From NCBI GenBank assembly GCA_964016885.1, contig OZ024751.1, forward strand, positions 51,522,001 through 51,586,000: 64,000 bases of DNA, in the 5' to 3' direction. Positions 16,561-29,680 of this stretch are shown piece after piece (positions within the stretch are counted from its first letter, which is position 1; every line of letters starts with the position of its first letter). Made by a program: the position numbers and the translations under genes. This DNA comes from Eledone cirrhosa (taxonomy: Eukaryota). The notes under the pieces were generated by a model, which did not search any database, was not told where the DNA came from, and saw only the letters and a program-made list of their open reading frames with translations.

Positions 16561-17136
16561 ATATAAGTAGGTACACCTACATACACATGTATACAGACAT
16601 ACTGTAGTATGGATATATATACATACATGCACACATATATATAAGTACGTATGGATTCACCGAACATTTATTATAATGCTCGGTGTGTGTGTAAACAAAC
16701 ATCCCGTATTAAGCCGTAGTGTCTAGCAACCATCGTTGCTCGTTTGTTCAACACTGACAAAGGAACGCTGTACTAGTTTCAAGCTTAAGGTAAGTATATA
16801 CGTTCAACAATCTGGCAGGAAGGTATACGTTGCTGACGATAGCTAATAAGCTTGAAACTAGTACAGCGTTCCTTTGTCAGTGTTGAACAAACGAGCAACG
16901 ATGGTTGCTAGACACTACGGCTTAATACGGGATGTTTGTTTACAAACACACCGAGCATTATAATAAATGTTCGGTGAATCCATACGTACATATATATATG
17001 TGTGCATGTATGTATATATATATATATACATACTACTGTATGTCTGTATGCATATGTGTATGTACGTGTACCTACTTATATTTAAGTAACAGCCGTACTA
17101 AGAGTGGGAAATGAAATTACATTTCATTTTTTCCGT
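16561..17136 (+). mobile_element. Fold-back Penelope-like element remnant 1 (arms 16561-16787 and 16847-17081, ~59-bp loop, tail to ~17136) in (TA)n
   Basis: Long inverted repeat with a few mismatches; hammerhead motif at the loop/right-arm junction. Confidence 0.75.
16827..16869 (+). ncRNA. Minimal type I hammerhead ribozyme
   Basis: acgttg-CTGACGA-t-agct(aata)agct-t-GAAA-ctag-TA-cagcgt: stem I 6 bp with one G:U, stem II 4 bp, palindromic stem III ACTAGT, GUA triplet. Confidence 0.8.
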
Positions 17137-17309
17137 TTATATATATATATAAATGTATATATTTATAATATATATATATATATATATATATATATATATA
17201 TATATATAATATATATATATATATATATATATAATATATATATATATATAATATATATGTATAATATATATATAGTATATATATATAATATATATATATA
17301 TATTATAGA

Positions 17310-18241
17310 AGGAAAGGCAGGTTGTATGATGCCTGCATACGAACAGCAATGTTACATGGCAGTGAGACCTGGGCATTGTGTGCAGAGGATATACGCAGAC
17401 TAGAGAGGAACGAAGCTTGCATGCTCCACTGGATGTGTAATAGTAACATACATGAACGGCAAAGCATAAGCGAACTAAGGAAAAAATTAGAAATAAGAGG
17501 GATCAGATGTTGTTTACTCAAGAGAAGGCTACGTTGGTATGGTCACGTGATGCGCATGAAAGACGACAGCTGTATAACAAAGTACAGGGCAATAAAGATA
17601 GACGGTAGCAGACCCAGAAAAACCTGGGACGAGCTGATAAATTCTGACCTCACACACTTACAGCTCTCCAAGACAATGTCACTGGACCGAGACCTTTGGC
17701 GGTACTCAGTAATAGTGAAAACCCGCCTTACCTAAATACAAAGTAAAACCTACTACAGTCAGTAGGCATCTCTAACAAAATACACCCCCGTCCCACCACC
17801 CCCACCCCATCCACACCGCCCCTTCAATGTACAGTTATGTTGGTGCCACAACATCCAGGCCGAAACAATTGAGATCGTGTAGGTGTCACGACAAAAAAAA
17901 CACACAGTCCACGCTGTAATGTGGCCGTGTAGGCAACACGGTAAAAACCTCCCAGCCCCACACTGTAAATGTGGTTGGTGTTAGGAAGGGCATCCAGCAT
18001 AAGAAAACCTGCCAGACAGTCCACGCTGTAATGTGGCCATGTAGGCAACACGGTAAAAACCTCCCAGCCCCACACTGTAAATGTGGTTGGTGTTAGGAAG
18101 GGCATCCAGCTGTAGAAAACCCGCCAGACAGTCCTAAGCGAACAAGACAATCACTCTTGCCTCAAGTGGAAAAACCCCCGTCCAAACCCATGCAAGCGTG
18201 GAACACGGACGTTAAACGTTGATGATGATGATGATGATGAT
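17310..18241 (+). mobile_element. RTE LINE family A, 5'-truncated, with ~113-bp tandem duplication in the 3' UTR
   Basis: ORF 17322-17735 is an RTE C-terminus; acagtccacgctgtaatgtggcc block present twice; (gat)n tail; (TA)n on both sides. Confidence 0.92.
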
Positions 18242-18606
18242 ATATATATATATAATATATATATATATATATATATATATAATATATATATAATATATAT
18301 ATATATATAATATATATATATAAAATATATATATTTATAATATATATATATATATATATATATATATATATATATATATATATATATATATATATATATA
18401 ATATATATATATATATAATATATATATGTATATATATAAAATATTAAAAAAATAATGAATAAACAAAGTTCATTATTTTACGATCGTTTCTAGGACATAT
18501 ATGTGTTAGAATTGGTATGCATAGAATTGGTATATATATATATATATATATATATATATATATATATATATATATATATATATATTATATATATATATAT
18601 ATAATA

Positions 18607-19016
18607 TATAAACGTTTGAATATGTGTAATAAGGCCAAGACAATGCAGGTATGGACATCTATATTATATATATATATATATATATATTATATATATATAT
18701 ATATATATATATATATATATATATATATATATAATATATATATATATATAATATATATATATATATATATATATATATATATATATATATATATATATAT
18801 ATATATATATATAATATATATATATATATATAATATATATATATATAATATATATATATATATATATATATAATATATATATATATATATAATATATATA
18901 TATATATATATATATATATATATATAATATATATATATATATATATATAATATAGATGTCCATACCTGCATTGTCTTGGCCTTATTACACATATTCAAAC
19001 GTTTATATATTATATA
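18607..19016. repeat. ~55-bp inverted repeats enclosing ~290 bp of (TA)n
   Basis: aaacgtttgaatatgtgtaataaggccaagacaatgcaggtatggacatct and its reverse complement; the same motif recurs at 19188, 19793 and 20400. Confidence 0.9.
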
Positions 19017-19383
19017 TATATATATATAATATATATATATATATATATAATATATATATATATATTATATATATATAATATATATATATATATAATATAT
19101 ATATATATATAATATATATATATATATATATATATATATATATATATATATAATATAATATATATATATATATATATATATATATATGGCCTTATTACAC
19201 ATATTCAAACGTTTATATATTATATATATATATATATAATATATATATATATATATATAATATATATATATATATTATATATATATAATATATATATATA
19301 TATAATATATATATATATATAATATATATATATATATATATATATATATATATATATATATATATATATATATATATATATAT

Positions 19384-26794: not shown

Positions 26795-27234
26795 TGTAAA
26801 GTTATATTTAAAATTGTTGGGTTACAACTAGTAAATATTTATAACTGATATAAAAGCACTCGACAAATACTTGGAGTATATTTACAATATTAAATAAATG
26901 GAAAACTATATTTATAAAACCATATTTATTTCATTATATATATTTCGGGGATATCATATTAACAATATGCTATGCCTTCATCAGACAAAATACAATATAA
27001 ACAGTTTTATAGATAAATATATTCGACATACCGTAATAAACATCAACTTCATTTGAAGAGGTTTACTCTATTGATGTTTATTACGGTATGTCGAATATAT
27101 TTATCTATAAAACTGTTTATATTGTATTTTGTCTGATGAAGGCATAGCATATTGTTAATATGATATCCCCGAAATATATATAATGAAATAAATATGGTTT
27201 TATAAATATAGTTTTCCATTTATTTAATATTGTA
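26795..27234 (-). mobile_element. Fold-back Penelope-like remnant 3 (arms 26883-27046 and 27071-27234, 24-bp loop, tail on the left)
   Basis: 164-bp inverted arms, each with a hammerhead; (TA)n on both sides. Confidence 0.8.
27125..27190 (+). ncRNA. Type I hammerhead ribozyme (mirror copy 26927-26992 on the minus strand)
   Basis: tattttgt-CTGATGA-aggcatagcatatt(gtt)aatatgatatcccc-GAAA-tatata-TA-atgaaata; stem I 8 bp with two G:U. Confidence 0.75.
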
Positions 27235-29039
27235 TATTTATATATATATATTATATATATATATATAATATATATATATATATTATATATATATATATAT
27301 ATATATTATATATATTATATATATATATATATATTATATATATATATATATATAATATATATATTATATATATATATATATATTATATATATATATATAT
27401 ATATATATATAATATATATATTATATATATATAATATATATATATATATATATAATATATATATATATATATATATATATATATATATATATATTATATA
27501 TATTTTATATATATATATATATATTTATATATATTTTATATATATATATATATATTTATATATATATATATATATATATATATATATTATATATATTTTA
27601 TATATATATATATATATTATATATATTTTATATATATATATATATATTATATATATTTTATATATATACATATATATATATATATATATATGTATATCAT
27701 CATCCTATATATGACTGCTTTTCCATATATATGCATGTGTGTGCTTATGTATATATATATATATATATATATATATATATATATATATATATATATATAT
27801 ATATATATATATATATATATATATATATATTATATATATATACACACACATATATATATATATATATATATATGTATATATATATATATATATATATAGA
27901 GAGAGAGAGAGAGAGAGAGAGAGAGAGAGAGAGAGGGAGAGAGAGAGAGAAAGAAAGATAAAGGATGAGGACAGAGAGAGAGGGGAAGAGAGAGATAAAG
28001 AAAGAGAGAAAGAGAAATAAAGAAAGGGGAGAGAACTGGTGACAGATTTTTCTTACAAATATTTATAGAGTTGGAGACAAAACAAATATGTTGCAGAGAA
28101 ATTCTTTCTTTTATGGAAATAAATGTGTTTTGGTTTTTATAACTATTTTTTCAGGGCGGGATTGGGGGGGGGGGGGGGGGAGAAGGGAACTGAGAAAAGT
28201 GAACAATTATTTTTTTTACGATTATCAAACAGAGGAAGATCAGCACCCATTAACATACAAAGGGACTATTGAAAAACTAACTAAAGACACACAGTCACCC
28301 ATTTATATATATATATATATATATATATATATATATATATATATGAATATAAATATATTATACATATATATATATATATATAAATATGAATATAAATATA
28401 TTATACATATATATATATATATATAAATATGAATATATATATATTATACATATATATATATATATATATATATATATAAATATATTATATATATTATACA
28501 TATATATAAACATATATATATATATATATATATATATATAAATATATATATATATATATATATATATATATATAAATATATATATATATATATAAATATA
28601 TATATATATATATATATATATATATTATATATATATATATATATTATACATATATATATATATTATACATATATATATAAATATATTATATATATATATA
28701 TTATACATATATATATATAAATATATTATATATATATATAAATATATTATATATATATATATTATACATATATATATATAAATATATTATATATAAATAT
28801 ATTATATATATATATAATACATATATATATATTATACATATATATATATATATAAATATATATATATATATATTATACATATATATATATATAAATATAT
28901 TATATATATATATATTATACATATATATATATAAATATATTATATATATATATATATATTATACATATATATATATATAAATATATATATATATATATAT
29001 ATATATATATATATATATATATATAAATATATATATATA

Positions 29040-29460
29040 TATATTAATAAGAGGAATTCCAACTTTGTCTGATTTACTCGTTTTATTTACAATCCTTTAA
29101 AATTTATAATGGTATTATAATGAAATAGTATGATAGAATATTAAATTCTAAGTGTTAATTGAACAAGTACTTTCATGCTTTCGCAATCTTCAGGTTCTTC
29201 ATATGTGGTGACAGTCAAGTTTGCAATTTTCAACTGTGCAGTTGAAAATTGCAAACTTGACTGTCACCACATATTAAGAACCTGAAGATTGCGAAAGCAT
29301 GAAAGTACTTGTTCAATTAACACTTAGAATTTAATATTCTATCATACTATTTCATTATAATACCATTATAAATTTTAAAGGATTGTAAATAAAACGAGTA
29401 AATCAGACAAAGTTGGAATTCCTTTTATTAATATAATCTTCTATACACAATCATACACAC
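29040..29460 (+). mobile_element. Fold-back Penelope-like remnant 4 (arms 29040-29236 and 29239-29435)
   Basis: Centre caactg-tg-cagttg; two arm mismatches seen; hammerhead in both arms. Confidence 0.8.
29278..29314 (+). ncRNA. Very small (37-nt) type I hammerhead ribozyme (mirror copy 29161-29197 on the minus strand)
   Basis: gaac-CTGAAGA-t-tgc(gaaa)gca-t-GAAA-gtac-TT-gttc; GAAA tetraloop on stem II; palindromic stem III AGTACT. Confidence 0.82.
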
Positions 29461-29463
29461 CCG

Positions 29464-29680
29464 TTTTGGAGGCCATCATGACTATCCATCTGGATAGTCA
29501 TGATGGCCTCCAAAAATAATGGTCGCATTTTAAAAGGGTACGTCAAAGCTTATTTGTAAAACTGTTATATATTGTATTTTGTCTGATGAAAGCATACCAT
29601 AATTTAATTTGGTATCCCTGAAATATGTATAATGAAATAAATATGGTTTTATAAATATAGTTTCCATTTATTAATATCGT
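29464..29680 (+). mobile_element. Second copy of the remnant-3 family with a short 5' hairpin (29464-29515) and hammerhead (29575-29639)
   Basis: 25-bp arms around tc; tattttgt-CTGATGA-aagc-atacca...tggtat-ccct-GAAA-tatgta-TA-atgaaata; homologous to 27108-27234. Confidence 0.75.

Follow-up and report, generated by a model that had tools for sequence, protein, structure and literature searches.

For Penelope-like elements (PLEs), inverted copies, one-sided tails, hammerhead ribozymes in the pseudo-long terminal repeats (pLTRs) and targeting of (TA)n have been published (PMC8557442; PMC3846280), and retrozymes have been described as non-autonomous PLE derivatives (PMC7229834; bioRxiv 10.64898/2026.07.22.740005). 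Here we analyze a 64-kb stretch of the 3.0-Gb genome of Eledone cirrhosa (C11:51,522,001-51,586,000; the window), in which a first-pass annotation had noticed four long fold-backs, here called E1 to E4, and to which we add a fifth hammerhead element, E5. Judged by their sequences, they represent five separate insertions of putatively ribozyme-bearing PLE end modules adjoining (TA)n, namely three families linked to open reading frames (ORFs), one sister subfamily and one retrozyme unit. Fold-backs of this kind are already known, their architecture is published and the elements are additional members. The origin of the tandem and inverted structures of PLEs is called unresolved in PMC8557442, and the value of the cluster lies in the sample: a one-tail rule, an arm-length asymmetry and a fixed 5' boundary give sharp predictions for an existing in vitro system, and ends as regular as these suggest that a single RNA is likely copied onto both cut strands, with two fixed points of initiation.

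With the Hydra clade of endonuclease-containing (EN+) PLEs (Craig et al., 2021; PMC8557442), the elements and their genomic relatives (loci with L numbers) share RWK and DKT motifs (L061), a CxCX5C linker without CCHH (L179) and a GIY-YIG domain at the C terminus, as well as a canonical hammerhead, (TA)n targets, an inverted 5'-truncated copy and a one-sided tail; they differ from that clade in tails of 85-100 nt versus 30-40 nt and in 3' untranslated regions (UTRs) of more than 1 kb. The hammerhead of Hydra-1_Obim, the sole cephalopod Hydra family listed in the accessible part of PMC8557442, differs from those of E2, E3 and E5, which therefore look like other families. Similarly, the ORF linked to E4 resembles Neptune and Nematis EN+ PLEs (PMC8557442) in DKG and YLDD motifs, a CX4CxxC linker, CCHH in the GIY-YIG domain and a tail of ~31 nt. 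Unlike in those clades, which are not separated from each other here, the E4 copies seen are mostly solo pLTRs with a fixed 5' end. E1 is like animal retrozymes of the non-LTR kind (LTR, long terminal repeat; PMC7229834; the 2026 preprint) in being a non-coding tandem unit of ~421 nt with one type I hammerhead per unit, occurring as anything from monomers to arrays of at least 40 units. It is unlike them in lying slightly above their range of 170-400 nt, in its minimal motif and in being inserted with a PLE inverted arm and tail. Finally, PAc Poseidon offers a likeness in vitro (Frangieh et al., 2024; PMC11167929): this PLE protein cuts and extends both strands of AT-rich targets and initiates reverse transcription internally, at two sites between which the tail lies. 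However, PAc Poseidon belongs to a different clade, and the accessible part of that study does not treat the formation of inverted arms or run-off at the RNA 5' end.

Anatomy of the elements

From 16.4 to 29.7 kb the window consists chiefly of degenerate (TA)n with inserts. Self-alignment revealed the four inverted repeats, each composed of an inverted arm, a direct arm and an unpaired tail on one side (Table 1), and BLAST detected no similarity of E1 to E4 to one another, in both respects as the first-pass annotation had described them. The inverted arm is identical to its direct counterpart in E2 (221/221 positions, against 25238-25458, without a spacer) and in E3 (100% over 162 nt, with a middle of 24 nt), differs by 2 mismatches in E4 (against 29238-29435) and is ~94% alike in E1 (against 16847-17084), where 59 nt in the middle are unpaired. 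Tails measure ~56 nt in E1, 100 nt in E2, 85 nt in E3 (on the left, on the inverted arm) and 29 nt in E4. Despite the absence of BLAST similarity between the elements, the tails of E2 and E3 have TACTCC and, farther along, GTCGAGTGCT in common. The (TA)n flanks that had been claimed for every element are present as a general setting but not on the right of E4, where E5 follows; the E4 tail abuts the 5' hairpin of E5 with no TA between them. The hairpin at this 5' end (29465-29515) is nested and looks as though the junction of loci L136 and L137 had been copied and folded again.

Positions 20165-20365 of the window are an N gap. At 18.6-20.4 kb, TA runs are surrounded by copies of a 55-nt piece in both orientations, and the two sides of E2 carry TA stretches that are identical over up to 103 nt; the lengths of the (TA)n tracts may therefore be wrong.

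A scan for type I hammerheads (CUGANGA, GAAA and UH with stems I to III; the pattern was written after the motifs had been seen) gave seven motifs in the window, all within E1-E4, with one per arm in E2 to E4 and a single complete one in E1, because the inverted arm of E1 lacks CUGACGA. The statement that each element contains a hammerhead is accordingly upheld, but not for the inverted arm of E1. No motif was found in 1000 dinucleotide shuffles of E1-E4, and 60 block shuffles of the window gave a mean of 0.07. The hammerhead of E5, the eighth motif of the window, was found at 29583 by a relaxed scan. A search with hammerhead models had also been proposed, and here the outcome was divided: next to the positive type I scan, Rfam scans showed no hammerhead among the 150 of 268 matches listed, which alone covered the E1 region, nor among all 44 matches of a second scan, and the matches were only microRNA-type hairpins below gathering scores.

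Table 1. Features of the fold-back cluster (window coordinates).
Feature	Position	Strand	Remarks
E1 inverted arm	16558..16787	-	untailed; starts within hammerhead stem II
E1 direct arm	16790..17140	+	partial monomer of ~421-nt tandem retrozyme-like unit; tail 17085-17140
E1 type I hammerhead motif	16827..16869	+	predicted cut after 16863; helix III palindromic
Degenerate (TA)n tract	23890..29044	.	hosts E2 and E3, borders E4
E2 inverted arm	25017..25237	-	untailed; antisense hammerhead copy 25068-25122
E2 direct arm	25238..25558	+	putative pLTR of Hydra-type PLE; starts at the fixed 5' boundary of the family; tail 25459-25558
E2 type I hammerhead motif	25353..25407	+	predicted cut after 25402
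E3 inverted arm	26800..27065	-	tail 26800-26884; hammerhead motif 26927-26992
E3 direct arm	27071..27235	+	untailed; hammerhead motif 27125-27190; probable sister subfamily of E5
E4 inverted arm	29040..29236	-	untailed; hammerhead motif 29161-29197
E4 direct arm	29238..29464	+	putative pLTR of Neptune/Nematis-type PLE; starts at fixed boundary; hammerhead 29278-29314; tail 29436-29464
E5	29465..29680	+	small 5' hairpin and untailed putative pLTR of Hydra-type PLE; hammerhead 29575-29639

Links to PLE open reading frames

Genome searches yielded 403 candidates for E1, 70 for E2, 104 for E4 and 2093 for E5, of which 40 were scored in each case, and 8 for E3. At other loci the 3' module was continuous with an ORF for a reverse transcriptase (RT) with a C-terminal GIY-YIG domain in the cases of E2 (L061), E4 (L180, L181) and E5 (L179). 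Pfam matches to GIY-YIG were below the curated cut-off (E values of 4e-4 and 2.5e-3), and protein-cluster look-alikes of these ORFs were RT, GIY-YIG and HTH_animal clusters only. In L061 and L181 pLTRs occur on both sides of the ORF, a partial pLTR with its tail just upstream of the ATG and a pLTR downstream.

L061 is laid out as an inverted 3' end, the partial pLTR with tail, the ORF, a long 3' UTR and a pLTR that is 92% like E2; the upstream tail ends ~50 nt before the ATG, the RT and GIY-YIG frame is broken, and the first Cys of the CxCX5C linker is a Trp. Through this locus E2 is identified as the putative 3' end of an autonomous Hydra-type PLE. In the case of E5, L179 carries an inverted E5 arm, RT, endonuclease and then E5 with its tail, 97-99% like the window copy. 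L179 is 5'-truncated and without the RWK/DKT region, and the linker in its endonuclease part is exact. E3 is 90% identical to E5 over 134 nt and 88-90% like the end of L179; no direct ORF link of E3 was found among its 8 candidates, the link running only through E5, of which E3 appears to be a young sister subfamily. For E4, 5 of 30 fetched loci continue upstream into one ORF, which in L180 and L181 ends ~350 nt upstream of the E4 copy (93-96% identity). The linker of L181, within the CX2-5CxxC pattern of Neptune and Nematis, and its CCHH and DKG motifs point to E4 as the probable 3' end of an autonomous PLE of one or the other type. The earlier proposal of several Penelope families is borne out by E2 and E4 directly and by E3 through E5, and that of retrozyme-like derivatives by E1.

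Elsewhere in the genome the E1 unit occurs in tandem with a period of 418-427 nt, as well as in monomers, and it lacks a long ORF (longest Met-started frame 51 amino acids sense, 97 antisense). With non-coding tandem units that each have a type I hammerhead, whose core is intact in 122/160 aligned copies, E1 has the sequence properties expected of non-LTR retrozymes. In 30 loci and their fetched extensions, so far as these were listed, no sense ORF lies ahead of E1. E1 is likely a retrozyme-like repeat with PLE-type ends that rides on PLEs, which would be its mobilisers. An E1 array of 40 units meets, at its start, a Hydra-type RT fragment in head-to-head orientation (L062:3129-3130); the joint would stem from either a chimeric insertion with two templates or a nested insertion.

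Conservation and predicted action of the hammerheads

Departures from the column majority were rarer in the hammerhead core than in the flanks for E2 (5/469 versus 180/2493), E4 (8/528 versus 162/2933) and E5 (9/1308 versus 124/6053); these counts, made on copies that are not independent, cover E1, E2, E4 and E5, E3 being left out for its antisense mis-hits. Two-sided stem changes were noted by eye in stem II of E5 and in stem I of E1. However, core conservation is weak in E1 (42/1760 versus 292/9053), and only the motif of E2, taken alone, gives a better fold than shuffled sequences (z = -2.66; others -0.41 to 0.78). Helix III forms a palindrome, imperfect in E2 and E5 and perfect in E1, E3 and E4; the perfect form fits the expectation for cleavage as a dimer, a requirement described for such hammerheads in PMC7229834. 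Where the fold-back is transcribed as a whole, the cores of E2 to E4 are fully paired. The hammerhead is a part of the pLTR, is predicted to cleave best as a dimer and would be masked in a fold-back transcript.

Another abundant TA-flanked family, present at 21421-21742 (+) and 46342-46412 (+), has a hammerhead-like fold with the core CAGAAGA (A instead of U at position 4) in 18/29 pattern matches, and may be an inactive master or else a variant of the core that occurs in nature. The accessible part of PMC3088659 mentions only U4C as a change at this position.

Arm ends and the formation of fold-backs

All 68 short head-to-head pairs found by script (15 of E2, 14 of E4, 39 of E5/E3; E1 was left out of this count) have exactly one tailed arm. 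Counting only arms from loci that were not fetched by the 5'-containing query of the respective family, 5' ends lie within 8 nt of one site in 10/37 arms of E2, 6/9 of E4 (9 arms being all that is free of this bias) and 14/58 of E5, and these boundary sites are 4- to 17-fold denser in 5' ends per nt than the sequence downstream. All three boundaries are at a CA, and TATATAA lies ~31 nt upstream of that of E4. At the 5' end, the arm with the tail is the shorter of the two in 41 pairs and the longer in 16 (12:2 in E2, 27:9 in E5, 2:5 in E4). In 40/57 pairs the two arms of an insertion resemble each other more than they resemble other copies, and in 4 they do so less, which is consistent with one template or with later gene conversion. 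Junctions mostly overlap by a few bases, and in neither E4 nor E5 do the arms pile up sharply where the cut is predicted.

Six of the 15 E2 pairs (L019, L025, L028, L215, L216, L217) have the same junction, in which a boundary arm meets one whose start lies 5 nt ahead of the predicted cut, and they belong to different sub-lineages; the cause could be microhomology, cleavage by the ribozyme or pausing of RT at stem II.

We consider it probable that the fold-backs are PLE end modules made by paired priming on both cut strands. The activity of PAc Poseidon in vitro on both strands and from two internal sites (PMC11167929) speaks for this. The enzyme of the element would cut both DNA strands and copy its RNA from each cut end, with the proximal initiation site used for one cDNA and the distal site for the other, and under this proposal a single arm is tailed because the two cDNAs start at different sites. 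For many cDNAs, priming would take place in the leading pLTR of the mRNA and synthesis would run off the RNA 5' end after 200-330 nt, so that arm length would be fixed; the two cDNA ends would then be united head to head, in most cases at a few bases that they have in common. The boundary would correspond to a transcription start, and the transcription start of Penelope lies inside the upstream pLTR (PMC2377424). Run-off of this kind was not found stated in the titles and abstract openings of the literature searched, outside which most subscription papers fell.

Several observations weigh against this account. One pair (L117/L118) has a tail on neither arm; it had been removed from the 68 by an 88% identity filter, and with it the count of inverted 5'-truncated copies with a one-sided tail becomes 68/69. 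Two E4 pairs (L063/L064) may be one duplicated insertion. The boundary sites were picked after inspection of the data, and 10/37 E2 arms and 7/58 E5 arms reach past them (none in E4). Reading the CA and the TATATAA as initiator and TATA box is tentative, and E2 has no TATA box. Later gene conversion could likewise account for the likeness of arms, and the clade calls rest on motifs, not on trees. In E4 the tailed arm is more often longer than shorter, and 9/14 pairs are near-symmetric, which fits snap-back too.

Self-priming, in which a cDNA or antisense RNA folds back and is copied into the inverted arm, was proposed on an antisense template in PMC3846280. It would suit the near-identity of the arms, the 8-nt palindrome present in the element at which E2 folds and the 9/14 E4 pairs with both arms at the same site. 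However, it requires that the tailed arm reach no less far at its 5' end than the other, whereas the tailed arm is shorter in 41 of the 57 unequal pairs, which argues against snap-back as a general route, and by itself it does not account for one tail in nearly all pairs. The one-tail rule and the 5' pile-up favor paired priming with 5' run-off, and we regard self-priming as unlikely. Still less probable is that the fold-backs are fixed non-autonomous units, such as MITE-like (miniature inverted-repeat transposable element) or solo-pLTR families, recopied whole. The shared E2 junction occurs on chromosomes C1, C3, C4 and C5, an E5 junction is shared by 2/39 pairs, and the E5 hairpin of the window resembles a second fold of the latter, all of which speaks for recopying; yet junctions are mostly unique, the six E2 copies differ in sub-lineage variants, one of them sharing its variant set with a copy of another junction, and the tailed arm differs between the two E5 copies. 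That the palindromes are artificial fold-backs, arising from the sequencing or assembly of a (TA)n region that is difficult, is very improbable: the N gap, the 55-nt repeats and the identical TA stretches would fit, and no listed contig (fragmented contigs and RAD reads) bridges a window junction with 31 nt per side, but arms end at family-specific proximal and distal ends, those of E1 and E4 differ in sequence, more than 60 other loci have this layout, and in contigs of one public run the E2 and E4 families are seen with further inverted-to-direct joints.

Building on paired priming, we put forward, tentatively and as a conjecture with the balance somewhat against it, that PLE insertion might be obligatorily two-ended, an enzyme dimer priming both cut strands at two sites of one RNA. 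Fold-backs would then be double run-off copies of the mRNA 5' end and serve as a map of transcription starts, the E2 junction that recurs 5 nt away from the scissile bond might record ribozyme folding or cutting in vivo, and the ~260,000 genomic motifs extrapolated below (140,000-410,000) would be at least the 126,247 reported for the axolotl.

Abundance of hammerhead motifs in the genome

In 40 evenly placed 10-kb stretches (400 kb, ten stretches from the same chromosome as the window) 35 hammerhead motifs were found, compared with none in five shuffled sets, and extrapolation from this sample gives ~260,000 motifs genome-wide, the range quoted above being its bootstrap interval. Motif counts track the (TA)n content of the stretches (Spearman 0.60). 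Per kb of (TA)n the cluster has 2.0 motifs versus 2.6 in the sample, and 1 of the 40 stretches likewise holds five motifs of different sequence. The microsatellite hotspot suggested in the first-pass annotation was rejected, as the density per (TA)n base matches that of the rest of the sample; the cluster is dense per kb because its TA content is high, and it is ordinary transposon debris for the E. cirrhosa genome. With no hammerhead in the Rfam matches listed here, these counts suggest a very large and mostly unannotated hammerhead load. For a squid genome, just 235 hammerheads were reported (PMC6962438).

Other features of the window

A further family with a decayed hammerhead-like core lies at 19786-20164 (-), 18604-18658, 18956-19010, 19187-19220 and 20383-20449 and is cut by the N gap; its last 55 nt are found again, in either orientation, around TA runs, possibly by local misassembly. 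LINE-type (long interspersed nuclear element) RT fragments are found at 17300-18240, 22150-23890, 29720-31030 and 53413-56031, several of them having (GAT)n tails that end in (TA)n, and there is one long RT frame on the minus strand. Like the TTAGGG repeats, these fragments point to an animal. An interstitial TTAGGG array of ~1.2 kb occupies 9500-10673.

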